Shown: positions 29,377 to 41,946 of the stretch, in pieces
Layout: each line of letters starts with the position of its first letter
How positions within the stretch are numbered: position 1 is the first letter of the stretch
Assembly (NCBI GenBank): GCA_016706425.1
Contig: JADJJR010000001.1
Coordinates: 701,973-765,972 of the forward strand
Reading direction: 5' to 3'
Source of the DNA: Elusimicrobiota bacterium
Lineage (GTDB): Bacteria > Elusimicrobiota > Elusimicrobia > FEN-1173
Length of the DNA: 64,000 nt
Position numbers and translations under genes: made by a program
Notes under the pieces: model-generated
Databases searched by the model: none
Seen by the model: only the letters and a program-made list of their open reading frames with translations
Told to the model about the DNA's origin: nothing

Positions 29377-29514
29377 GGAGGGATGGGAGAGCGGGCGCCG
29401 TGTGCCAGTGGCACACGTTTGGCGCGGGTCGACAGACCCCGGGTTTGCCTCCTGGCCCGACATTTTCGGGCCGAGGCAAACAATCCGCCGCACGTTATTA
29501 GCGTGCCAATTTTT
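29377..29514 (+). pseudogene. disrupted tRNA-Ser 5' fragment. It shares the first 18 nt and the AATCCGCCGCAC segment with the adjacent intact tRNA-Ser, is interrupted by an ~87-nt insertion, and has no 3' half.
   Basis: GGAGGGATGGGAGAGCGG is repeated verbatim 138 nt upstream of the intact gene. The insertion is the GTGTGCC-hairpin repeat element. Confidence 0.5.
29395..29481 (+). repeat. structured repeat element, copy 1 (GCGCC-[GTGTGCC-AGT-GGCACAC]-GGCGC closing stem, then GGGTC-GACA-GACCC and a long hairpin GTTTGCCTC..GAGGCAAAC)
   Basis: The second copy at 41497-41580 conserves the GTGTGCC/GGCACAC hairpin and the CCGAC..TTTT..CCGAGG loop motif. The closing stem covaries (GCGCC/GGCGC versus GTCCC/GGGAC). 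Confidence 0.55.
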
Positions 29515-29604
29515 GGAGGGATGGGAGAGCGGTTGAATCCGCCGCACTCGAAATGCGGTAGGGGCGCAAGCTCCTCGTGAGTTCAAATCTCACTCCCTCC
29601 GCCA
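29515..29604 (+). tRNA. tRNA-Ser(CGA), type II
   Basis: Colinear with E. coli tRNA-Ser(CGA): acceptor GGAGGGA/TCCCTCC, discriminator G, anticodon loop CTCGAAA, long variable arm, T-arm GTGAGTTCAAATCTCAC, encoded CCA. Confidence 0.8.
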
Positions 29605-31178
29605 TATGTGAAACCCCCCTCGGGGGAAGAAAGGCCCAACGGCGAATCGTCGTTGGGCCTTTCGCTTGTACGGGCGGAGTCGTCCGACAGCGTCCGAGTC
29701 GTCGTCCCCGGTCGAAATCCAACCCTCAAAGCGGTCGAATTCTTTCTATTTCCCGCGCTCCGCGCGGCGGTGGCGGAGTCCAACACCATCGGACTTTTAC
29801 CGTCGAGCGGACGGGCGGAGTCCCCGTCCCGCCCGGTCGTCCTCCCCGCGTCAACCTCCGGGGCGGGACCGTCCACAACGAAGTCCACACCGATGCTCTT
29901 TTTCGAATAGCGGACCCTTTCGATCCACTTCCGAACCAAAAGGGATTTCTCGATTCCGGTTGTGCGCGCACATGCCTTTACAAATGCTTTGAGGTTTTTT
30001 TGGAGCAATTCGGGGGTAAAGTTGTAAACATCTGGTAGCGGTTCAACACCACTCCCCCTGGGGCGAGTGGTTTGATTTTGATGGGAATTCACCAAGTTTT
30101 TCAAATATTCGGTGTCCTCCGAAATCCGTAGGAGGTTGGAATAGACCGCGTCATGGAGGCGCTCCGCGCCGATTTGGCGGGTGCCGCAAGCGTCCTTTCC
30201 ACTGTGTCCCACCTTCGAACATCGGTAATAGTAGTACTTGTGCCCGTTTTTCTTGAGCTTGCTTGAAAACGCCACGCCCATGACGGAACCACATTCCCCG
30301 CATTTGATGATCCCGGCGAAAGGAAGGTGGGAATGGGTTTCCGTATGGAAGCGGGGCGATTCGGTCATGAGCTTTTGAACGTGGTTGAACAAGTCCTCCG
30401 AAATAAGGGGCGGGTGCTGGCCGGGATGAATTTTCCCCTTATGGACGATCTTCCCGGTGTAGACGTTTTTCCTCAACATTTGCCAAATGGCTGAATCCCC
30501 GAAAGGCTTCCCACGGCGGGAGAGAATCCCCTTTTCCTTAAGCATCCGGAGGATCGCCCGGATGGAGCGGGTTTTGACGTAGGTTTCAAAGATTTGTTTG
30601 ACGATCTGGTCGCGCGGCGGGTCGATGACGAGGGCGGCGTTTTCCGCCTTGTATCCATAAGGAGGTTGGCCGCCATGATAGAGGCCGCGCTTGACCCGCT
30701 GGATCACCTTATCTTTCACGCGCTCGGAAGCGAGCTCCCGCTCGAACTGAGCGAAGGTCAGCATGATGTTGCGAAGGAGACGGCCCGAGGGCGTGGAGGT
30801 GTCGAACCGCTCCGTCACCGAAATGAAAGAAGCCTGATACTTTTCAAGGAATTCGATCATCTGATAGAAGTCGCGGGGGGAGCGGGTTAGACGGTCGATC
30901 TTGTAAGTGATGACAAGCTGGATTTGCCCGGCCCGGATATCATCGATCATCCGTTTGAGGGCCGGGCGGTTCATGTTGGCCCCGGTGAAACCGGGGTCGG
31001 AATAGACATTAAAGATTTCAAACCCCTCCTGGCTGGCGATGAAGGAGCGGATGCGGTCCTCTTGGGCCTCGCAAGAATTGAACTCGACCTCGGCTTGGGC
31101 GTCGGTGCTTACGCGGGTGTAGATGGCGCAACGGGTGATTTTCCGTTCATTTTCCGTCGGGGTGGTTAAAGCTTGCAT
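29583..31178 (-). CDS. large serine recombinase (resolvase catalytic domain + recombinase domain + zinc-ribbon). The C-terminal ~120 codons run through the inverted repeat into tRNA-Ser and are probably not genuine.
   Basis: Catalytic AIYTRVSTDAQ, recombinase-domain motifs, zinc ribbon CGECG..C..C. GGAGG SD. The body is lower in GC than the flanks. Confidence 0.8.
   Translation of the reverse strand: MQALTTPTENERKITRCAIYTRVSTDAQAEVEFNSCEAQEDRIRSFIASQEGFEIFNVYSDPGFTGANMNRPALKRMIDDIRAGQIQLVITYKIDRLTRSPRDFYQMIEFLEKYQASFISVTERFDTSTPSGRLLRNIMLTFAQFERELASERVKDKVIQRVKRGLYHGGQPPYGYKAENAALVIDPPRDQIVKQIFETYVKTRSIRAILRMLKEKGILSRRGKPFGDSAIWQMLRKNVYTGKIVHKGKIHPGQHPPLISEDLFNHVQKLMTESPRFHTETHSHLPFAGIIKCGECGSVMGVAFSSKLKKNGHKYYYYRCSKVGHSGKDACGTRQIGAERLHDAVYSNLLRISEDTEYLKNLVNSHQNQTTRPRGSGVEPLPDVYNFTPELLQKNLKAFVKACARTTGIEKSLLVRKWIERVRYSKKSIGVDFVVDGPAPEVDAGRTTGRDGDSARPLDGKSPMVLDSATAARSAGNRKNSTALRVGFRPGTTTRTLSDDSARTSERPNDDSPLGLSSPEGGFTYGGGSEI
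29601..29957. repeat. left copy of a ~357-bp inverted repeat. It begins at the tRNA-Ser 3' end and contains the 3' end of the serine recombinase ORF.
   Basis: The reverse complement recurs at 31863-32205. Identical spurious ORFs are translated from both copies. Confidence 0.8.
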
Positions 31179-31490: not shown

Positions 31491-31862
31491 ACCATGACAG
31501 CCGCGTCAATGGGCCGCCATGTGGCCCGTTGGCGCGGCTGTTTTAATGGGGCCGTTCTTCAGCCGGGCCGGAAGGCGGGCCGATGAAAGGGGTAAGCGGG
31601 CCTCTGGATTTCGGGCGCGAAAAAGGGGTGGCTTAGCGGGCCTTGGGTTTCCGGGCGCGAAAGCTTTTCCCGCTTTTGACCCTGCTTGGGGCTTTGAATC
31701 AGCGTGGGTCACACCTTTTTTATTTTCTCCTCTTCCCGACGGGGAGAGGCCGGGAGAGAGGTTCCGGCTGTCCCTTCCCCCCAGACGGGGGAAGGGAGGC
31801 AGGGAAGGGGGCTCCTCCTGGGGGTGGGTGTGCGCGCGGTGTTGGAATCGAGAAATCCCTTT

Positions 31863-32205
31863 TGGTTCGGAAGTGGATCGAAAGGGTCCGCTATTCGAAA
31901 AAGAGCATCGGTGTGGACTTCGTTGTGGACGGTCCCGCCCCGGAGGTTGACGCGGGGAGGACGACCGGGCGGGACGGGGACTCCGCCCGTCCGCTCGACG
32001 GTAAAAGTCCGATGGTGTTGGACTCCGCCACCGCCGCGCGGAGCGCGGGAAATAGAAAGAATTCGACCGCTTTGAGGGTTGGATTTCGACCGGGGACGAC
32101 GACTCGGACGCTGTCGGACGACTCCGCCCGTACAAGCGAAAGGCCCAACGACGATTCGCCGTTGGGCCTTTCTTCCCCCGAGGGGGGTTTCACATATGGC
32201 GAGAT
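31863..32205. repeat. right copy of the ~357-bp inverted repeat. Its outer end is a degenerate tRNA T-arm/acceptor remnant (GGGATTTCAAATATCTCGCCA, in reverse orientation).
   Basis: Reverse complement of 29601-29957. Confidence 0.8.
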
Positions 32206-33719
32206 ATTTGAAATCCCGCGAAATAAGGCCCGACTTCTCTTCCCAAATATAACACATAGCTACTGGGGAACCTATCGTCAAACCGGGCAATACTACCTCC
32301 GCCCTTCTAAATTGTCGGTTGATGATGAACTCACGACCATATAGCGCCCCTTGGGTTGCCGTTCCCCTCGCCCGCGTGCGGGAGAGGGTGCCCGGACGGG
32401 GCCGGAGAGGGCGGACGTTTCCCTCGCCCCTTGGGAGAGGGTGGCCGAAGGCCGGGTGAGGGGCCGAATTTTCCGTCGGGAATTCATCCTTCACCTTTCA
32501 ATAATGAATTTGTGACGGTTATACCCGCCGCCTTCCAGCGCGGGACACACCGCGCCGCGTCGTCTTCGCTGATCACCATGACGAGAAGGGACGGCGTTCC
32601 GCGCCTCGCGTTCCCGTCGGTCACATCGCCGCATCGTCGTCACTGGCGAAGTGTGACGAGAGGATGGACAACGCCGCCGCGTCCCGTTGTCCATCCGACA
32701 TCCCGCCGCGTCGTCGTCCCTGAGTGGCGGCGTCATCGTTGGCGGGGACAGCACCCGCCGCCATGTCACGGCGGGAAGGAATCCACAGCCACACGCCGAC
32801 ATGATCCCGCCGCCCGTCCTCGTCGTCCCGCCGGATGGATGGACACCGCCGCCGGGCTTCGTCTTTGTCCCGGCCGGAGGGATAACGGCCCCGGCTGTCG
32901 TCCCCTGGAAAACCGGAAGCCACCGCCGCCGGGAGAAAACCCCCGCCCTGTTTCGTGAATCGGGGACCGGGGATCGTGATCCGGCCGCGTGGGGATGATC
33001 CCGCCCGGTGTCGTTTTCCCGACGGATGGACGCCGCCCGCCGCGAAAACCAGAAGAAGCCACCCCCCGGAAAGAAGCGAGTCCCGCGCCCGGAAAGAAAA
33101 CCCGGGCGCTTGAACATGGCCGGGGAAAAGGCGGGGCGACCGTGGCGCTCCGCCGGAAAACCCCGGCGCTGTGTCGCTGGCGGGGGAAGGGGATCATCGC
33201 CCGGGCGCTCGGACAGAAACCCCCGCCCTGTGTCGTCCGGGGGAGAGACGGGGGCGCGGCCCGGCCCGGCACGAGAGACGTGCGCCGGTCCAGGCCGCTC
33301 GGTCGTCGCTGACGGTTAAACGTCCGGTCCGGCGGAGTGACGGCACCCGCTCCGGCCTTCGGAGAAAAACCGCACCGGCCGCCGCCACGAAAAACGGGCG
33401 GCGTCGGCCGGTGCCCCGCTTCCCTCGCCGCGTCGGCGGCAGAGAACGCCGCCGCCGCACCTCGGCCCGCTGTGCTGGCGGACGGACGCCCGGCGCGCCG
33501 CACGAAAAACTTGCGCGGCGCACCTCCTCGGGGCGACTGTTTCGTTTCCGCTCCGGTCTTCGGCCAAACCAAACCACCCCCCCGCAGAGTGTCGCCCTCC
33601 CGGACTTGACCCGCCGTCGCCCGGTGCAGGTCACGCCCCCGCCCGCCGTTGGCGGGCCCGCTGTCCGGGCCGGGGGGCCGGGTCGTTGGCCGGTGGCCTT
33701 TTGGGGGGGCGCGCGCACA
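32192..33719. repeat. 1.5-kb non-coding GC-rich structured repeat, copy A (island-left). It consists of many short hairpins whose loops carry GAAAAC / GAAAACCCC-type motifs.
   Basis: Near-identical inverted copy at 50478-51996. Every ORF inside is low-complexity (R/G/P-rich) and matches its twin, so the region is judged non-coding. Confidence 0.8.
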
Positions 33720-33917
33720 TAGGCCTTACCCTTCCTTTTATGATTTCCTTCAAATGGCGTCCGTCGTTGGGGGGCTTGGGCTCACCTCGCGGGAGCCAGG
33801 CCCCCCGCCTTTGGACATCCTTTAAAGGCGGTCTTGCGTGGCCATGAGGTTCGGCCGCCAAGTCCGCCGGGTTTTCCCGCCGCCGGGAGAGATTCCCCCT
33901 TCCGGCGGCGGGCGCGA

Positions 33918-34112
33918 TTATTCCGACCAACCAACGATTTTGACCTGATGACCATCGATCCATGTTTTCCCATGTCCAGCCGTGGGTTCGATGAGGTAGT
34001 CCACCGCGTTTGGCTTCGGACGCACGTCCCGGATGATGACGGAGACTTCCAAGCCTCCTGTCTGAATCATGCCCTCTCGCCCAACTGCCCGCTGCTCGTC
34101 GCTCAAAGACAT
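33918..34112 (-). CDS. hypothetical small protein (64 aa), divergent from the XRE gene
   Basis: Strong GAGGAGG SD 5 nt upstream of the internal Met MSLSDEQ. Confidence 0.4.
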   Translation of the reverse strand: MSLSDEQRAVGREGMIQTGGLEVSVIIRDVRPKPNAVDYLIEPTAGHGKTWIDGHQVKIVGWSE

Positions 34113-34189
34113 TTTAGCCTCCTCGGTAAAACCCTTATTACATTCCAATTTGGCATATGACATTATGGAAACTATCTTATCAGAACACT

Positions 34190-34411
34190 ATGAAAAAGAC
34201 TATCTATTCGCGGGAACATAAAGGATTGATCGCCCGGCTTAAGAAGGCACGGGAAGCTGCGGGACTTCAACAACAGGATGTCGCCCGACTGTTGAAGCGT
34301 ACCCAGTCTTATGTGTCAAAACTCGAATCTGGGCAGCGCCGGGTTGACGTAGTCCAGCTTAAAACGCTGGCAAGAATTTATAAGAAGCCTTTAGAACACT
34401 TCATTGGATAA
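34190..34411 (+). CDS. XRE-family HTH transcriptional regulator
   Basis: HTH LQQQDVARLLKRTQSYVSKLESGQ. First gene of the low-GC defence block. Confidence 0.65.
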   Translation: MKKTIYSREHKGLIARLKKAREAAGLQQQDVARLLKRTQSYVSKLESGQRRVDVVQLKTLARIYKKPLEHFIG

Positions 34412-34435: not shown

Positions 34436-35422
34436 ATGACCACTACCACCCTTTCCCCCGGACTCAAAGAAGCCTTTGATAAACTAGTTCGAGGAACACC
34501 TGAAGACATAAAGGCCTATCTCACAAACATCGAAACATCCCTACCGTTAGCCGGCACAAAGGCCAATATTCATTGCCATACCATCGCACTGGACGGTCAG
34601 AAATTCCCCCGGATTAAAGATTTGGCCAAGTTCCTTTCTTTTAAAATCATCGATTATTCCATCCCCAGAAAAGAGATCGATCGTGCGAAAGAACACTTGA
34701 CCAAGACAGGATCAGCAGCAAAAGTTGCCGAGCTTCAAAAGAAAGCCGCCTCACTTTTCTCTAGCTTGGAGAAAAGTGGGGAGGGTGGTGAGCTGCTCTT
34801 GTATCTTCTGGTCGAATATTTTCTTCAACTCCCACAAGTGATGTGTAAGATGCCACTAAAGACAAATTCAGAAGTCCACTACCACGGTATTGATGGCATC
34901 CATGCATCCGTGGATAAGGACACAAATAATCTCGCGCTCTATTGGGGGGAATCGAAGCTCTATAAAGACGTGAATGCCGCGATATCTGCCTGCATTTCTA
35001 GTATCCAACCTTTCCTTGTTCCGAAAGGAGGCTCGGGCGATCCACGCGAAAGGGACCTTCAGCTCATGCGGGACAACCTGGACCTAAGTGACCCGGCACT
35101 TGAGACCGCCCTATTCAAGTATCTTGACCCTGACGATCCTATGTATAAGAAACTTGAGTACCGGGGCGCCTGCCTCATTGGATTCGATCACAAGGCATAT
35201 CCCAATACTCCGAATTCAAAGACTGAAGAGGTTGTTTGTGCGGAAATAAAAACGGGTCTTGCCGATCAAATTGCCTTTCTAAAAGAGCAAGCAATCTCTG
35301 CCTCCCTTGCCTCCTTTTCTCTCGAAGTTTTTTTCGTCCCGTTTCCGTCCGTTCAGGAATTTCGTGACGCCTTTGCTGAGGAGATAGGGACGCGTGAGCC
35401 TCCAAGATCGCCTTCTAAATAG
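34436..35422 (+). CDS. hamA: HamA-like protein (Hachiman effector candidate, DUF1837-like) with a PD-(D/E)xK-like motif
   Basis: 328 aa, low GC. Contains SGEGGELLLYLLVEYF and IDGIHASVDKD...YWGESKLYKD (D...ESK). Immediately followed by, and overlapping, a large SF2 helicase gene. Confidence 0.5.
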   Translation: MTTTTLSPGLKEAFDKLVRGTPEDIKAYLTNIETSLPLAGTKANIHCHTIALDGQKFPRIKDLAKFLSFKIIDYSIPRKEIDRAKEHLTKTGSAAKVAELQKKAASLFSSLEKSGEGGELLLYLLVEYFLQLPQVMCKMPLKTNSEVHYHGIDGIHASVDKDTNNLALYWGESKLYKDVNAAISACISSIQPFLVPKGGSGDPRERDLQLMRDNLDLSDPALETALFKYLDPDDPMYKKLEYRGACLIGFDHKAYPNTPNSKTEEVVCAEIKTGLADQIAFLKEQAISASLASFSLEVFFVPFPSVQEFRDAFAEEIGTREPPRSPSK

Positions 35423-37934
35423 CCCGGGCTTCCGTCGTCAAATGCATGCACTGACCCTTGAGTCGGTGCGTGGGAGCTTTGCAAATCTGAAACCCCCAGC
35501 CGATGCCCAGCCAGTATCACATGATTGGCAACACTTACTCCTCACAGCAAGCCTAATGGCTCAGGCTCCCAAAGAGCGACCACAAGCGACGGCACTCCGT
35601 ATCGCTCACCATTGTCTCAACTCCACAACAAATGGAACTAACCACCGCGTGGCCGCAGCAATCGTTTTGGATTTATTGACCAATAGTCCATCTATTAAGC
35701 TTGCGATAGAAAAAAACCTCCTAGACGAGGGTTTTATGGAGCGAGTTCCAGCCCCCCTACGCCTTGATGTATTTAAACGGGCCGCCGAATTTTCGGTTTA
35801 TCGCGGTGACAAAGTAATTCATCTCAATCGGTTTCAAAAAGACGTCCATAATGCCCTTGAGTCGGCAGAATGCGTCAGCATATCAGCGCCAACGTCCGCT
35901 GGAAAATCGTTTATCCTCGAAAATCATGTGAGAGAGTATGTAACTGACTCTGGGAAAAAGAACATCGTATTTGTGGTTCCCACCAGGGCACTCATACAAC
36001 AGGTCGAGACGGACTTACAATCCATTTTCTCTGATTCATCTATTAAACCGATAATCACCTCTGTCCCTCAGCTTCCACCGAACTGGGATCAACAATCGAA
36101 TATTCTTGTCTACACCCAGGAAAGACTTCAGTGGCTAATGAATGATGCTCCGGACGAGTTTAAACTTGACCTACTCATTATTGACGAAGCACAAAAGGTC
36201 GGCGATGGTGCCCGTGGGGTTCTTTTACAGCAAGCGATTGAATTGGCCACTTCAAGATGGACGAGCTGCAAGGTTATATTCTCTAGTCCCATGTCTAGCA
36301 ATCCAGAAATGTTATTTCGCCACACAGGAAAAACTGGCGTCCGAGTAATTTCAGAATTAGTCACCGTGAATCAAAATCTCATATGGGTCTCGCAGGTTCC
36401 CCGTGACCCCAAACAATGGACCGCAGAGCTTTGTGTGCATGATGGAAAGTCATTGCTTGGGACAATTTCGTTAGAACAGCGTCCGACTGACCCTCGGAAA
36501 AGGTTGGCCTTTATCGCCCAGGCCATGTCTGACGCCAGTGGCGGAACTTTAATTTATGCTAGTGGACAAGCAGATGCCGAAAAGATGGCAATCTTGCTGG
36601 CCAATTCAATTTTAGAAGATGTTATAGACTCGGGAATATCGGACTTAATAGATCTAGTTGCCAAGACCATTCATCCAAAGTATGCGCTAGTAAGCACTCT
36701 GGCTCGTGGCGTTGCTTTCCATTACGGCAATATCCCTCTTTTAATTCGCACTGAGATCGAGCGACTATTTAAGGAGGGCAAGATACGATACTTGGTTTGC
36801 ACATCAACACTCATTGAGGGGGTGAACCTCCCTGCCCGCTCAATATTTGTTCGCCGCCCAACCAAGGGGCCAGGCAGACCTATGAGTGAAATTGATTTCT
36901 GGAATATGGCGGGGAGAGCGGGAAGGCTCGGCAAGGAATTCCAGGGAAATATTATCTGTGTTGATCCTGATAACTGGGAAGAACCACCGCCACAAAAACG
37001 CGTCCGATACAAAATAGAGAGGACACTGGATAAAGTGACTTCTCAAGCCACATCACTTATAAATTTCATTGACTCCGGAAAGACGATGAAAGGGGGGCCG
37101 AGTAAAGCTGAGCTTGAGCATACTCTCGCATACCTCTTCCTTCAACACTCTCGCCATGGGTCTATTAGCAAAGGCCCCTCTGCCCCCGAGTGCGATCTGG
37201 CTATCTTGCAACAGATTGACGCCAGCCTAAAATCCGTAAGTGACAAAGTCACTTTGCCGATAGAAATCCTTACTCGCAACCCTGGGGTAAATCCATTGGG
37301 TCAACAAAGCCTTCTCAAATACTTTCTGGAATATGACGATCAAGCCACGGAGCTTATCCCCACCCTTCCTGAAAGCGACGATGCTTTTACCTCCTATGTT
37401 CGCCTTCTTAACCGCATTTGCACCCACCTGTCTGGGGACCCCACGCAGCTCAGTCCATATTTTGCGGTATTGGCAATTAACTGGATGCGTGGTTATCCGC
37501 TGTCAAGAATCATTGCCGACAATATCAAGTATTGGGGAAAGCATCCCGAGAAGAAGAAGACAGTGCCGGTGATTATTCGAGACTCAATGCGTGACGTGGA
37601 GGAGTTCGCGAGGTTTAAATTTGTGAAATATTCGGCATGCTATGTTGACATCCTGCGCTTCTATTTCCGAACAACTGGACATGCCGCCCATTTAGGACAA
37701 ATTCCAGATCTGAATATCTGGCTCGAATTTGGTGCGTCTCAGCAAACCCAGATTTCTCTGATGGGAATAGGCCTCTCTCGTCAAACAGCAATTTCTATTT
37801 CTGAGCTTATTCCGCAACATAACATGGATAGGGATGCCGCCATCGCATGGCTCAAACAATTAGATTGTGACAGCCTAGATCTCTCCCCGATCGTCATTGC
37901 GGAGTTAAAAAAGGCCCGCAGCGCTTTGTTGTAA
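35394..37934 (+). CDS. hamB: HamB-like superfamily-2 DExH/DEAQ-box helicase (Hachiman helicase candidate)
   Basis: 846 aa. Motif I APTSAGKS, motif II LIIDEAQ, motif III-like SSPMSS, motif VI MAGRAGRLG, CTSTLIEGVNLP. The GTG start overlaps the hamA end by 29 nt; an alternative ATG lies at 35442. Confidence 0.6.
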   Translation: MSLQDRLLNSPGFRRQMHALTLESVRGSFANLKPPADAQPVSHDWQHLLLTASLMAQAPKERPQATALRIAHHCLNSTTNGTNHRVAAAIVLDLLTNSPSIKLAIEKNLLDEGFMERVPAPLRLDVFKRAAEFSVYRGDKVIHLNRFQKDVHNALESAECVSISAPTSAGKSFILENHVREYVTDSGKKNIVFVVPTRALIQQVETDLQSIFSDSSIKPIITSVPQLPPNWDQQSNILVYTQERLQWLMNDAPDEFKLDLLIIDEAQKVGDGARGVLLQQAIELATSRWTSCKVIFSSPMSSNPEMLFRHTGKTGVRVISELVTVNQNLIWVSQVPRDPKQWTAELCVHDGKSLLGTISLEQRPTDPRKRLAFIAQAMSDASGGTLIYASGQADAEKMAILLANSILEDVIDSGISDLIDLVAKTIHPKYALVSTLARGVAFHYGNIPLLIRTEIERLFKEGKIRYLVCTSTLIEGVNLPARSIFVRRPTKGPGRPMSEIDFWNMAGRAGRLGKEFQGNIICVDPDNWEEPPPQKRVRYKIERTLDKVTSQATSLINFIDSGKTMKGGPSKAELEHTLAYLFLQHSRHGSISKGPSAPECDLAILQQIDASLKSVSDKVTLPIEILTRNPGVNPLGQQSLLKYFLEYDDQATELIPTLPESDDAFTSYVRLLNRICTHLSGDPTQLSPYFAVLAINWMRGYPLSRIIADNIKYWGKHPEKKKTVPVIIRDSMRDVEEFARFKFVKYSACYVDILRFYFRTTGHAAHLGQIPDLNIWLEFGASQQTQISLMGIGLSRQTAISISELIPQHNMDRDAAIAWLKQLDCDSLDLSPIVIAELKKARSALL

Positions 37935-37969
37935 TGCTCCCCATTAGTCAAGCGGCGACGAAGTGAGAA

Positions 37970-38025
37970 TTGTGGCTACCTATCCCCTTGGAGTCCAAAA
38001 AACGGTACGGGCCTCCCGAGATGAG
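37970..38025 (+). repeat. direct repeat DR1 (ATTGTGGC...CCTTGGAGTCCAAAAA.CGGGCCTCCCGA.GATGA) upstream of the CHAT gene
   Basis: The same ~57-bp sequence recurs at 40290-40438, with a palindromic element inserted. Confidence 0.6.
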
Positions 38026-38079
38026 TTGACAGGCCGAAGATCTCCAAGAAAATCTAGAAAATAGCTTGGAAGGACGCAT

Positions 38080-40290
38080 ATGAAAAAAATGGGCCATTTT
38101 ATGGGCCGATCGATTCTCCGCATCCCATACCGGTATATTGGTCCCCGTGTTCCAAATACTTGGCGCCCCCCTTTCCTCTCCGACAGATGGCTATTAACTT
38201 TAGGCGCATTTCCTCAGAATTTACTTTCCTTGGTCAATCCCACCGTTGCCTTCAAGATGATATCTCAACTTGCCAATACTGGCGGGCATGACTTCGGCGT
38301 TATCTATGATGAAAATGTGGCTGATTGTGTTGAAAACCAGATTGAGAACCACCATCCGATAGGCATACTGATCGTAGACACACATAAAAAAGAGGTTTTT
38401 CAGCATCTAGCGAAGATGTTTCGTAAAACCTTTATTACCGCATTTGATGATAATGTGGCTAAAGAACTAAAGGCTGATCCTGTCTGCAATGATAAATTTT
38501 TAGATTTCGATCCAATTGTTGTCGCAGATGAAATACGACGACATCTTCCAATGGCCCTAAGAATGTGTGGGGAACTGATGGGGGACCCATTCCCTGATGA
38601 AATAATTGCAAGAATGACAGCGCAATCTGAGTTGATTAAACGCGGCGATCAGAAAATGTTTTATGACTTCGCGCCATGCTATCCAAATTACTTAAACATT
38701 GCCCAGATAAAGGGGTGGGGCTGGAACGCTACCCATTTACCTAAAAAGGTTGAACATCATCGACGGATTAGGGCGGCGATAAGATCTGTCAAAAAGCTAG
38801 ACATCAATCATTGGGTTATAAACCAAGAGTCTCCCCCCCTAATCCTGACCTTTCCATTTATTAATCGTCGTGAAGAGTCGATCAAATTGCGGCGCATTCG
38901 AAACGAGATCCCTGCCAAAGCCAAGCCAGAAATTTTCAAACTAATGCGTGGCTTTAAAATCGAGCAATCAAAAGACTATCTGTGGTATTTTGACCAAGAG
39001 CTAGAATCCATCTCTGGCTTGATTATTCGAGAGAGGAGCAAACATCTTGCATTCCTCGATAACATGCAGTTCCTTCATTCAGGGTTTAGATGTTCTCCCT
39101 CTCTCCGGGTTCCGGCCAAAGGAGCCTCAATCTATGACTGTTTGGCCCCTTTTGAACCTCGGGAGTTTCGACGGAATTATTCGCCCAAAGGCGTTTTTGA
39201 AAACATTTCAAAGCTTGGTGAGAAATTGGCGGAATCGATCCCATCTGAATACTTGGATATTCTCAGGCAGGCCAAAAGACAGATGGTCGTGATAAGTGAT
39301 TTGCCAATTGAGTGGTTGATGATTGACGGAGTTCCATTGGGGTTTAAGAATGACGTATGTAGGTTGCCGGAAAATCCAGGCGCCACCGTTATGACTCAGT
39401 TCGCAGTAAACAGCCAAGTTTTCTTTTCAATTCCTTCCGAGATTTTAAAAAAGACTCTTGTCGTGTGCCTTTCGCCAGGGGACGATGAAATCTTACGCGC
39501 ATTTCAGAATATCAAACGGACGCACGAATCCAGTGGTGTGAGGTTTGAAACTTGCAGAAGCATGGAGCATCTCAAGCAGGTGGCAAACGAATCTGATTGG
39601 GACCTAATCATTTACTTCTCCCATGGATCATCAAGGAAAGACAGGTCGGACTCCGTTCTCTTAATGGATGGGGTTGAGATATCCGGTCAAGAGATTATTG
39701 ATAACGGCCTGTCTGCCCCGCTCGTTGTGCTGTTCGCCTGTGAAATGGCCCCACTGTTCGGTTATCTCAACCCCATTCCCCAGGCATTTTTCGAAGCTGG
39801 GGCCATGTCCGTGGTAACAACAATTCTTCCGATTTCAATCAATAGTGCCTTTTTGTTATGTAATCGAATACTCATCAATCTTTCGACGGCAGCAAAAACA
39901 AAGATCCATCATAATTGGCTAGATTTCGTCAGCCACAACCTCAGAACTTCACTTTTCGAGGACATGATCCATAGAATCCTCGACAGCAATAAGCTTTCCT
40001 ATTTGATCCCCAAGATGGATTATGAAAAAAAAGCGCCTTGGCTTGGAAAGGCGATGAATCCCCTGACCCGTGTTGCCGCGTATAAGGAACTATCAGAATC
40101 GGTCTCCAGATGTTTTCCAGTGGAATCGAGGCCCCGGGTCAAAGATGTGCTGGATAAGAACGAATTCTTACCAGAGGGCCTTTTCTTCAGCATATGGGGA
40201 AGAGCTGATCTAATCCCATTTGACTCATGGAGCAACAAGCTCAATATAGAACAGAACTCCGGGTATGATTCATCACAAGTTCGCGAATGA
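38080..40290 (+). CDS. CHAT-domain (caspase-like cysteine protease) protein. The N-terminal ~390 aa have no recognisable homology.
   Basis: 736 aa, low GC, GGAAGGA SD. CHAT hallmarks: DLPIEWLMIDGVPLGF, catalytic His in DLIIYFSHGSS, catalytic Cys in PLVVLFACEMA. Confidence 0.75.
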   Translation: MKKMGHFMGRSILRIPYRYIGPRVPNTWRPPFLSDRWLLTLGAFPQNLLSLVNPTVAFKMISQLANTGGHDFGVIYDENVADCVENQIENHHPIGILIVDTHKKEVFQHLAKMFRKTFITAFDDNVAKELKADPVCNDKFLDFDPIVVADEIRRHLPMALRMCGELMGDPFPDEIIARMTAQSELIKRGDQKMFYDFAPCYPNYLNIAQIKGWGWNATHLPKKVEHHRRIRAAIRSVKKLDINHWVINQESPPLILTFPFINRREESIKLRRIRNEIPAKAKPEIFKLMRGFKIEQSKDYLWYFDQELESISGLIIRERSKHLAFLDNMQFLHSGFRCSPSLRVPAKGASIYDCLAPFEPREFRRNYSPKGVFENISKLGEKLAESIPSEYLDILRQAKRQMVVISDLPIEWLMIDGVPLGFKNDVCRLPENPGATVMTQFAVNSQVFFSIPSEILKKTLVVCLSPGDDEILRAFQNIKRTHESSGVRFETCRSMEHLKQVANESDWDLIIYFSHGSSRKDRSDSVLLMDGVEISGQEIIDNGLSAPLVVLFACEMAPLFGYLNPIPQAFFEAGAMSVVTTILPISINSAFLLCNRILINLSTAAKTKIHHNWLDFVSHNLRTSLFEDMIHRILDSNKLSYLIPKMDYEKKAPWLGKAMNPLTRVAAYKELSESVSRCFPVESRPRVKDVLDKNEFLPEGLFFSIWGRADLIPFDSWSNKLNIEQNSGYDSSQVRE

Positions 40291-40438
40291 TTGTGGCATT
40301 GAACCTAGGCGCGTAGGGGACGTTGTCAACTTAGAAACTTATCCCCACCCCTTCACCTCAATTAAATTGACAACGTCCCCTACACCGCTTAGAATCCCAC
40401 TCCTTGGAGTCCAAAAATAGGGGCGGGCCTCCCGATGA
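40290..40438 (+). repeat. direct repeat DR2, starting at the CHAT stop codon. It is the DR1 sequence split by a 71-bp palindromic MITE-like element (40313-40383, 17-bp perfect inverted repeat GTAGGGGACGTTGTCAA / TTGACAACGTCCCCTAC).
   Basis: ATTGTGGC and CCTTGGAGTCCAAAAATAGGGGCGGGCCTCCCGATGA match DR1. Confidence 0.6.
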
Positions 40439-40459
40439 TCTGGGAGACCCGCCCTTTTG
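40421..40459. terminator. bidirectional intrinsic terminator (GGGCGGGCCTCCC-loop-GGGAGACCCGCCC, T-tract on both sides) between the convergent CHAT gene and the 135-aa gene
   Basis: 13-bp GC-rich stem, then TTTTG downstream and an A-tract upstream. Confidence 0.6.
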
Positions 40460-40462
40460 CCG

Positions 40463-40870
40463 CTAATCTTCATCAAGTTCTAGGACGGTAATGACTGCCT
40501 CCGCATCATCGCCGGGGCCGCAGAGGGCCTTGAGCGTGACGAGCGGCGGCGTGCCTGCCTTGTTATCGTTGCGGACGTGGAGACTGAAGCGGATGTAATC
40601 CCCGCCATCGGACTGGCGGATGGCGTGGCGTAACATGAACAGAAGATCAAACAGCCGCCCCTTGGAATCCTGACAGGGGACACCTGCCGGGACCTCGACA
40701 TACCGATCCCACACCGCCCGAGTGAGCGCGATGGGGAAGCGGAACCGAAGCTCCTTGTATTCCGACGAATCAGACACGTCAACCAAGAACCCATCCTCAA
40801 TGGCCTGGGCGCGAGTGTATCGGCTGATGACCGGCGCGTCACTGAACAATCCCTGCTTTTGCGTGTGCAT
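40463..40870 (-). CDS. conserved hypothetical protein (135 aa), high GC
   Basis: AAGGAGG SD 5 nt upstream of Met38 of the tracked ORF. No homology recognised. Confidence 0.45.
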   Translation of the reverse strand: MHTQKQGLFSDAPVISRYTRAQAIEDGFLVDVSDSSEYKELRFRFPIALTRAVWDRYVEVPAGVPCQDSKGRLFDLLFMLRHAIRQSDGGDYIRFSLHVRNDNKAGTPPLVTLKALCGPGDDAEAVITVLELDED

Positions 40871-41496
40871 GTGTTTCCTCCTTAAGCCGCTTTCCGCGGT
40901 GTTTGGGAGAAAAGGAACAACGAGCCTGGGAGGTCCGTCACGCCGGGAGGGGTTGGATCGAAGGAAGGGGACGGGCCTCACCTTAGGCCCCGCACCATCG
41001 AGCCCCGGCGCGAAGTGGAGCGAAGCGACCGTAGAGGGTCCGGCCAGGAATAAATGGCCGAAGGCCGTTTCTTTTATGCCTGGGCCGGAGCCCTTGACGT
41101 GACCACCTCAGGCCGTTGTTAAACTGAAAAGACACAGGACGGAAAGCGCAATATCAGGATCGACCGGGCTACCGGGCGTCCTCTCCGGGAGTTTCCCCCC
41201 CGGAAAGGATTCCCACAAATCGGGAACACGGCCATGACTCCGGCCGTGAAACCTTTAAAGGTCGCGGCTGATTGTGCCTTGGGGCCCACGGGCATGGAGT
41301 CCGTGCCTTCTGCGGCGCAATGGGACCCAAGACCCAATCCGAGAGACGGTCCCTTTTCCATCTGGAGGCCGCCGGAGGCGGACCCGAAGGAAAAGCCGCA
41401 GTATGAAGCCGCCGGTTTGTGGCGGCCGACGGCCGGGCGGAACCCCGGGCCGTCCTGGGTGAGGGCTCGCAACCGAATTCTGTGGCCGGATCGAGG

Positions 41497-41580
41497 GTCC
41501 CGTGTGCCGGTGGCACACGAATGGGACGCCCGGTTGAAACCGGGCCGGTTCCGACGAGTTTTACCGAGGAGGAACAGCCG
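41497..41580 (+). repeat. structured repeat element, copy 2 (GTCCC-[GTGTGCC-GGT-GGCACAC]-GGGAC, then GCCCGG-TTGAAA-CCGGGC and a hairpin carrying CCGAC..TTTT..CCGAGG)
   Basis: Paralogue of 29395-29481, with compensatory changes in the closing stem. Confidence 0.55.
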
Positions 41581-41679
41581 CGACCGGGTTTCGCAGGTGA
41601 TGGGGTGGTGGAAGTATCCCGATATCAGCGCCACCGACGTAAATTTGCGAGAGAAGAGCATTGATGTTACACTTGTGTT

Positions 41680-41946
41680 ATGAAACGTGGTCGCCGTTGG
41701 TTCTTTATGTTCGCCTTGAGCCTGTTCCTCTTCGGAATGGTTCAAGACGCTTCGAGTTCCTGCGCATCGGGCGAAGTGACGACCGATGTTTGCCACGCCT
41801 GCGTATGCGGGCCTCACATCGTTCCCATGTTGATCGACGGGGACGGCGTTGCGGCCAAGGAATACCCGGCTCACTTTGAGCGGTCCGTTTTTTCTTCGTT
41901 CCTCACCGCAAAAGATATTTTTCACCCTCCTAAAACCTCCGTCTAA
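41680..41946 (+). CDS. hypothetical small secreted Cys-rich protein (signal peptide; CASGEVTTDVCHACVCGPH)
   Basis: 88 aa, immediately upstream of the czcCBA-like operon. Possible metal-binding periplasmic protein. Weak SD. Confidence 0.3.
   Translation: MKRGRRWFFMFALSLFLFGMVQDASSSCASGEVTTDVCHACVCGPHIVPMLIDGDGVAAKEYPAHFERSVFSSFLTAKDIFHPPKTSV

Follow-up and report, generated by a model that had tools for sequence, protein, structure and literature searches.

In the 64,000-nucleotide (nt) stretch of contig JADJJR010000001.1 of an Elusimicrobiota bacterium (hereafter the window), a gene for a Borvo-type CHAT protease, bovA, lies next to the Hachiman defence genes hamA and hamB and is flanked by two imperfect direct repeats, DR1 and DR2 (Table 1). 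We read the two repeats as a recombination scar, i.e. an attachment-site-like (att-like) junction that bounds a 2.4-kb bovA unit, and not as a dispersed element or as the 3′ untranslated region (UTR) of hamB. We hold this reading tentatively, at a confidence that falls a little short of even. The window comes from an Elusimicrobia metagenome-assembled genome (MAG) lineage that has been repeatedly recovered from activated sludge, and the NCBI, ENA and Logan assemblies that contain an identical locus number more than 10.

The gapless core of the repeat (37986-38019 aligned to 40402-40435) is 34 nt long with 30 identical positions, and its two copies flank the CHAT open reading frame (ORF). One insertion or deletion (indel) of 2 nt extends the match to 38024 and 40438 (33/37 positions). 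The local alignment score is 49 as opposed to 13.9 ± 2.1 for 500 shuffles (maximum 24), which is about 16 standard deviations (SD) above them, and the 16-mer CCTTGGAGTCCAAAAA occurs at only two sites in the 64 kb, DR1 and DR2, even when 3 mismatches are permitted. All four mismatches of the core are confined to two dinucleotides that lie between a perfect block of 16 nt and another of 12 nt. Since the mismatches cluster in this manner, two related versions of an att sequence are favoured over a once-identical duplication that has drifted. Two of the G's that pair in the stem at DR2 are TA in DR1. An earlier note on this DNA had described a 57-bp direct repeat around the CHAT gene; the repeat does exist, but its robust length is about 38 nt. 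The longer version was taken to start at the CHAT stop codon, where the match consists of just the 8-mer ATTGTGGC (37969, and 40290 where it overlaps the bovA stop), and for two intergenic regions of such size the expected number of 8-mers in common, in direct orientation, is about 0.4. This 8-mer starts 34 nt after the hamB stop and not 36 nt as had been described, the earlier coordinates being off by 1-2 nt. Outside the core, the left flanks of DR1 and DR2 are not significantly similar, as 162 of 500 shuffles reach their score, or 122 of 500 even after deletion of the palindrome that precedes DR2 (HP1, see below); the same is true of the right flanks (106 of 500). Because the flank similarity beyond the core is at chance level, the proposal that the palindrome is an insert nested inside the second repeat copy stays unproven, and the palindrome in fact ends 10-18 nt upstream of the DR2 core. 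Both the extension of the repeat to ATTGTGGC and HP1 as a nested insert were therefore rejected.

The identity of the repeat is given by its context at DR2, where it overlaps a hairpin of 13 pairs (11 of them G-C; dG −31 kcal/mol, z −3.0) that has the features of a Rho-independent terminator and is common to bovA and to the convergent gene of the DUF6573 family. The stem lies 8 nt from the DUF6573 stop codon. On the minus strand, DR2 comprises the distal arm of this hairpin, its TTTTT tail and 11 further nt, and the sequence distal to the hairpin at this locus is TTTTTGGACTCCAAGG. DR1 ends at the position that corresponds to the hairpin loop in DR2, and has neither the second arm nor the T-run. 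No terminator was predicted in the spacer between hamB and bovA, and its fold is no better than that of shuffles (z −0.06 and +1.1). The hairpin had been called a strong bidirectional terminator; its presence and bidirectional shape hold, with a minus-strand tail (TTTTT) that is better than that of the plus strand (TTTT). A relative of the DUF6573 gene in a different organism (locus L044, 79% nt identity over the gene) keeps the stop codon, the spacer and the proximal arm CGGCAAA(T)AGGGCGGGTCTCCCA (22/23), and therefore the terminator belongs with DUF6573. The repeat thus corresponds to the distal half of the DUF6573 terminator rather than to a hamB 3′-UTR, for which it had been mistaken. The 16-nt block beyond the T-tract would then be native target sequence. 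Among the other DUF6573 relatives, the sequence of locus L106 does not extend past the stop codon, and in the viral homologues the divergence is too great for a comparison of 3′ flanks. We also considered whether the 3′ end of the DUF6573 gene had itself been changed by an insertion, and rejected this, as its C-terminus agrees with the consensus of the family, the divergent C-terminus being that of the paralogue.

This paralogue belongs to a 1-kb repeat comprising the DUF6573 gene and about 600 nt upstream of it (window 40482-41497; L040 7360-8389), of which the genome has a second copy, with 87.6% identity, at a distance of about 0.9 Mb. The second copy follows genes for a 450-aa reverse transcriptase (RVT_1) and a 169-aa ORF; it has a diverged C-terminus and an inverted, partial copy (91 nt) of the 3′ end of the gene just downstream. 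DUF6573 homologues were also seen in 61 viral contigs (L045-L105, IMG/VR), so that the host-like neighbour gene belongs to a family associated with phages or mobile elements.

Table 1. Features of the hamAB-bovA locus, in coordinates of the window, with the observations on which each assignment is based.
Feature	Position	Strand	Basis
Xre-type helix-turn-helix (HTH) gene, first of the low-GC islet	34157..34411	+	Pfam HTH_3 E 2e-12; GC3 0.47
hamA (Hachiman)	34436..35422	+	Pfam HamA E 1.6e-61; PADLOC HamA1 E 3e-121
hamB (Hachiman helicase)	35394..37934	+	PADLOC HamB1 E 6e-292; Pfam DEAD, Helicase_C
DR1, truncated copy of the terminator distal arm, A-tract + CCTTGGAGTCC	37986..38024	+	alignment to DR2
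Promoter-like site for bovA, TTGACA-16-GAAAAT	38026..38053	+	10/12 match; starts 2 nt past DR1
bovA, Borvo-type CHAT protease gene, 736 aa	38080..40290	+	PADLOC BovA PDLC03831 E 1.1e-52; Pfam CHAT E 1.4e-8
HP1, 88-nt imperfect palindrome	40305..40392	.	perfect 17-bp inner arms 40313-40329, 40367-40383; outer 7-bp stem past bulge
Near-consensus sigma-70-type promoter-like site, TTGACA-17-TAGAAT	40367..40395	+	11/12 match; 15/20000 shuffles as good
DR2, full-context repeat copy; minus strand = beyond-T-tract sequence, T-tract and distal arm of the DUF6573 terminator	40402..40438	+	alignment, terminator prediction
Rho-independent terminator hairpin common to the convergent genes	40419..40456	-	stem 40421-40454; minus tail CTATTTTTGG, plus tail TTTTG
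DUF6573 gene, convergent on bovA	40463..40870	-	Pfam DUF6573 E 1e-27; GC3 0.72, host-like

DR2 also marks a compositional border. The guanine plus cytosine (GC) content is ~63% in the host DNA and ~46% in a block at ~34.1-40.4 kb, in which the gene order is HTH-hamA-hamB-bovA. The drop in GC sets in at ~34100, and the return from 0.42-0.49 to 0.62-0.64 occurs at about 40.40-40.46 kb, that is on DR2, which is the right edge of the islet. In terms of GC at third codon positions (GC3), the HTH gene, hamA, hamB and bovA have values of 0.47-0.49 against 0.72-0.80 for the host genes. As 28 loci of the same species, drawn from more than 10 independent assemblies for which different assemblers were used, agree exactly in the region with the repeat, palindrome and terminator, an assembly artefact is excluded; the sibling assemblies show no variation at the locus.

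Borvo is reportedly a single-gene system. The bovA product matches the PADLOC BovA profile over residues 225-713 (profile positions 215-711 of 720), scores 35 bits for Pfam CHAT where the cutoff is 24, and contains FSHG and FACE motifs in its translation. It is therefore a single protein that fits the BovA profile and has a CHAT domain, in line with the listing of Borvo as a CHAT-protease system (PMC10952713, citing Millman et al. 2022). It resembles other Borvo proteins in being a single protein of about 730 aa with the BovA profile over the C-terminal two thirds, in its CHAT His and Cys motifs and in its location in a defence islet. It differs in that the N-terminal 224 residues lie outside the profile, that identity to the closest homologue in the databases is only 30%, and that the anti-phage role here is a prediction from sequence. 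With a nearest relative at this 30%, no close bovA relative was available for a comparison at the DNA level. In one assembly (GCA_016718955.1, L030, 10581-12790) the gene call splits bovA into two ORFs (537 + 204 aa), as a result either of a frameshift or of an indel of long-read assembly. The neighbouring pair conforms to Hachiman, since the HamA (DUF1837) gene adjoins and overlaps the HamB helicase gene and the PADLOC and Pfam matches of both are very strong; hamAB here departs from it in having no terminator of its own and an Xre HTH gene ahead, and is otherwise not unusual.

In other genomes the two systems occur independently of each other. The three nearest HamB relatives (65, 62 and 57% identity) come from hamAB loci that have no downstream CHAT gene, and two BovA-like relatives (28-31% identity) have no hamAB nearby. 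Because the nearest hamAB loci lack bovA and the BovA relatives lack hamAB, Hachiman and Borvo are, as judged from these comparisons, independent systems that are merely adjacent here. This, along with the PADLOC BovA match, bears out the earlier view of the CHAT gene as modular and distinct from hamAB. The accompanying view that it was acquired separately fares less well, as GC3 is 0.47 for both hamAB and bovA, and no difference in codon usage was seen between them (chi-square p 0.23). From this composition hamAB and bovA probably share a donor pool, and they may have travelled together.

Between bovA and DR2 lies HP1, which has a predicted fold with dG −38.1 and z −8.8. A 71-bp element with perfect inverted repeats of 17 bp had been described here (40313-40383), and its arms are indeed perfect over 17 bp (21 nt at 95%). 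Clean 71-bp ends were however not found, since the pairing runs on through a bulge to form the 88-nt hairpin. HP1 resembles a miniature inverted-repeat transposable element (MITE) in being short and non-coding with perfect 17-bp terminal inverted repeats. It is unlike one in that its flanks (GGCGC / ACCGC) are not direct repeats, i.e. there is no target-site duplication, and pair instead as the outer stem CTAGGCG/CGCTTAG past the supposed ends. In the data searched it is single-copy: no other copy was found in the window or in 108 compared loci, no two-arm match was found in viral contigs, and the two matches to a single arm fall within coding sequence and are due to chance. The label of MITE given to it earlier thus has no support. 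HP1 was also considered as an integron attC site and rejected, as, on inspection, RYYYAAC / GTTRRRY core sites are missing from both strands of 40305-40392 and the inner stem, being perfectly paired, has no extrahelical bases.

Two promoter-like sites accompany the repeats. The one ahead of bovA is matched in score by 294 of 20000 shuffles of the intergenic region (p about 0.015), and a GGAAGGA ribosome-binding site is present 7 nt before the bovA ATG. The other has its −35 element in the right arm of HP1 and is directed into DR2, whose first base is its predicted start, and only the terminator follows it. Such a site could give an RNA of roughly 55 nt, or could drive bovA only upon circularisation of the repeat-bounded unit. 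A search of 37900-40500 against Rfam at a permissive E-value gave no match.

As regards the mechanism, we infer that the 2.4-kb unit (the putative bovA promoter, bovA and HP1) would have joined the border of the islet by recombination within the terminator-like att sequence. The unit, which would have had an imperfect version of the site of its own, would have integrated in a Campbell-type or site-specific manner, and this amounts to tandem accretion at a single att site. It would leave bovA between DR1 as an attL-like and DR2 as an attR-like repeat, with hamAB and bovA having arrived in either order. As a terminator is lacking after hamAB, HTH-hamAB transcripts could read into bovA, which would keep its own promoter, and the HTH-hamAB and bovA transcripts would all end at the hairpin shared with DUF6573. 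Units that lack an integrase and are bounded by attL and attR, as well as accretion at an att site beside the 3′ end of the target gene, are established for cis-mobilizable elements (CIMEs; Pavlovic et al. 2004, reviewed in PMC5704250). As in these, there are direct repeats at both ends here, the cargo lies within imperfect repeats of a few tens of nt, one repeat overlaps the 3′-end structure of a conserved neighbour gene, the unit has no recombinase and a second foreign module is present at the same border. The differences are that the target is the terminator of a protein gene and not a tRNA or tmRNA gene, that the unit is only 2.4 kb with one gene, that no cognate integrase was identified, that there are two repeats and not three, and that no excision product or empty site was observed. 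Defence genes are also known as integron cargo. The locus is like integron cassettes in that single genes form a promoter-proximal array and each has a structured, imperfect palindrome behind it, and is unlike them in that neither HP1 nor the terminator has RYYYAAC / GTTRRRY cores, no integron integrase is present within 10 kb and DR1 is only half a site.

A number of observations weigh against such a scar. The contig of L044 ends in the terminator loop, so that its distal arm (which is the repeat) is taken as native sequence only from the need of the proximal arm for pairing. Simple tandem accretion would predict a third repeat copy, and none was found left of hamAB or near the tRNA-Ser and the serine recombinase gene, either by BLAST-short or by Smith-Waterman alignment compared with shuffles. 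No empty site or variant lacking bovA was found among 21 contigs with this HamB and 19 with this DUF6573, all of which show the same arrangement, or by exact-protein look-ups that included BovA, and no circular junction was seen. The hamAB locus without a CHAT gene and with a single repeat copy, which the earlier note had envisaged, consequently has no counterpart here, as every contig with this HamB has bovA. Among the genes called within ±10 kb there is no Phage_integrase or other tyrosine recombinase and no integron integrase. The sole recombinase in this range is a large serine recombinase (Resolvase/Recombinase, 531 aa, 29583-31178, minus strand) that lies 8 kb away, and direct repeats of about 38 nt are not the usual product of large serine recombinases. 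Also, hamAB and bovA are compositionally indistinguishable, which makes it possible that they arrived jointly and that the repeat had formed earlier elsewhere. Wider searches for the empty site gave only distant material: downstream of the nearest hamB relatives, the distant hamAB loci have no non-coding sequence in common with this locus, and a search of GTDB genomes through OEP gave only relatives of 61-71% with no synteny left of OEP.

A joint arrival leads to the explanation that the whole HTH-hamAB-DR1-bovA-HP1 block was built in a low-GC donor and came in one event. DR1 would then be donor history, from a time when a DUF6573-type terminator lay beside hamB, and DR2 would be donor sequence or a homologous anchor. 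The similar GC3 and indistinguishable codon usage of all four islet genes agree with this, and a donor copy of DUF6573 could have given the homology, the gene being widespread and linked to phages and mobile elements (61 viral loci, and in the same genome a paralogue of 87%). Yet the DUF6573 gene here has a host-like GC3 and its terminator is conserved with it in the relative, and no donor-like locus was found in the collections searched, where identity reaches no more than 30% for BovA and 65% for HamB. We consider this course of events unlikely, but to be taken seriously.

We give somewhat less credence to the repeat being a member of a dispersed host or donor family (a repetitive extragenic palindromic (REP)-like or terminator module, possibly of the uptake type), in which case two adjacent genes would each have been followed by a copy, the first of them later truncated, and nothing would be specific to the insertion of bovA. 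In favour of this, repeated terminator modules typically contain an A/T-tract and a terminator arm rich in GC, and the repeat has both. But there are exactly two copies in the 64 kb, 2.4 kb apart, and none in 16 kb of the same genome elsewhere (L040-L042) or in four related Elusimicrobia loci. A pattern of 22 specified bases of the repeat had no match in 185,579 species-representative genomes, a scan that may not cover this genome, as the present species itself was not recovered there (best OEP match 71%; the genome is possibly absent or the window masked). In 241 M JGI metagenome records its only match was a 1.1-kb contig of this locus, and the repeat was not found in viral contigs, plasmids or phages. 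Among the 108 compared loci, it is present only in copies of this locus, always twice where both positions are covered.

To a similarly low degree we credit the idea that the repeat was doubled as a functional cis-element, either as an operator or as the body of a small RNA (sRNA). For the operator version, the core contains an 11-bp palindrome, TTGGAgTCCAA, which occurs with no mismatch only in the two repeats; its DR1 copy precedes the bovA −35 by about 30 nt, its DR2 copy is located at +1 to +13 relative to the HP1 promoter, and TTGGAGTCCAA would be the candidate target of a regulator such as the Xre HTH of the islet. The perfect 16-nt and 12-nt blocks on either side of the clustered mismatches suit such an element as well. 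However, no copy of the palindrome is present near the HTH/hamA promoter, which is the site expected for an autoregulated Xre protein. For the sRNA version, in which DR2 would be the body of a roughly 55-nt transcript, a transcript from the near-consensus HP1 site (Table 1) is predicted to start with the first base of DR2 and would reach the terminator after about 55 nt. Against this, DR1 is in sense orientation and cannot pair with a DR2 RNA, Rfam gave no match, and the DUF6573 gene explains the terminator half of the repeat with no further function.

A bolder version of the bovA unit is that of a minimal, recombinase-less defence cassette of 2.4 kb that integrates into the loop or distal arm of a terminator through an att of about 38 nt. 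The outward promoter of HP1 would then read through att into bovA only in a circular or tandem form, whereas the integrated form would give only the roughly 55-nt RNA identical to the repeat. This is very improbable in our estimation; if true, the unit would represent a new, trans-mobilised type of single-gene defence cassette that differs from the cassettes of integrons. We give a negligible probability to chance similarity or an artefact of assembly, as only the ATTGTGGC part is at chance level while the 34-38-nt core is refuted as chance or artefact by its shuffle score and by its identity across independent assemblies.

Some further features of the surroundings were noted. A 35-nt hairpin sequence, GAAAGGCCCAACGGCGAATCGTCGTTGGGCCTTTC, is present at 29629-29663 and as an exact reverse complement at 32138-32172, 2.5 kb off. 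The two copies bracket the serine recombinase gene and a gene for a 75-aa HTH protein, and together they may form a module that can invert or move. An exact duplicate of the first 18 nt of tRNA-Ser(cga) lies 138 nt upstream, just past smpB (29377-29394, 29515-29532). The recombinase ORF overlaps the 3′ end of this tRNA gene, which along with the 18-nt duplication may be an integration remnant at the tRNA. Between the recombinase module and the islet is a GC-rich stretch (31500-34000, 63-82% GC) with few called genes and several families of short repeats (26-50 nt, at spacings of 40-280 nt). On the other side of the islet, GCA_016716755.1 (L003/L014) has ~1.2 kb of extra DNA between DUF6573 and an 88-aa ORF (window about 41000-41680) as compared with the window and the other MAGs, and this is probably an insertion sequence.

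Taken by itself, the locus is a case of ordinary island mosaicism, an instance of the known att-like junction repeat in a mosaic defence islet, with no new mechanism or class of element. The evidence for mobility is circumstantial. If the repeats are a recombination scar as we propose, the locus would be a clean and small example of the growth of a defence island gene by gene, whereby Borvo was added at the terminator-associated border where a Hachiman pair also lies. The upstream terminator would have been decapitated in the process and two independent systems fused into one transcription unit, and the scar would thus bear on how neighbouring defence systems become co-regulated.

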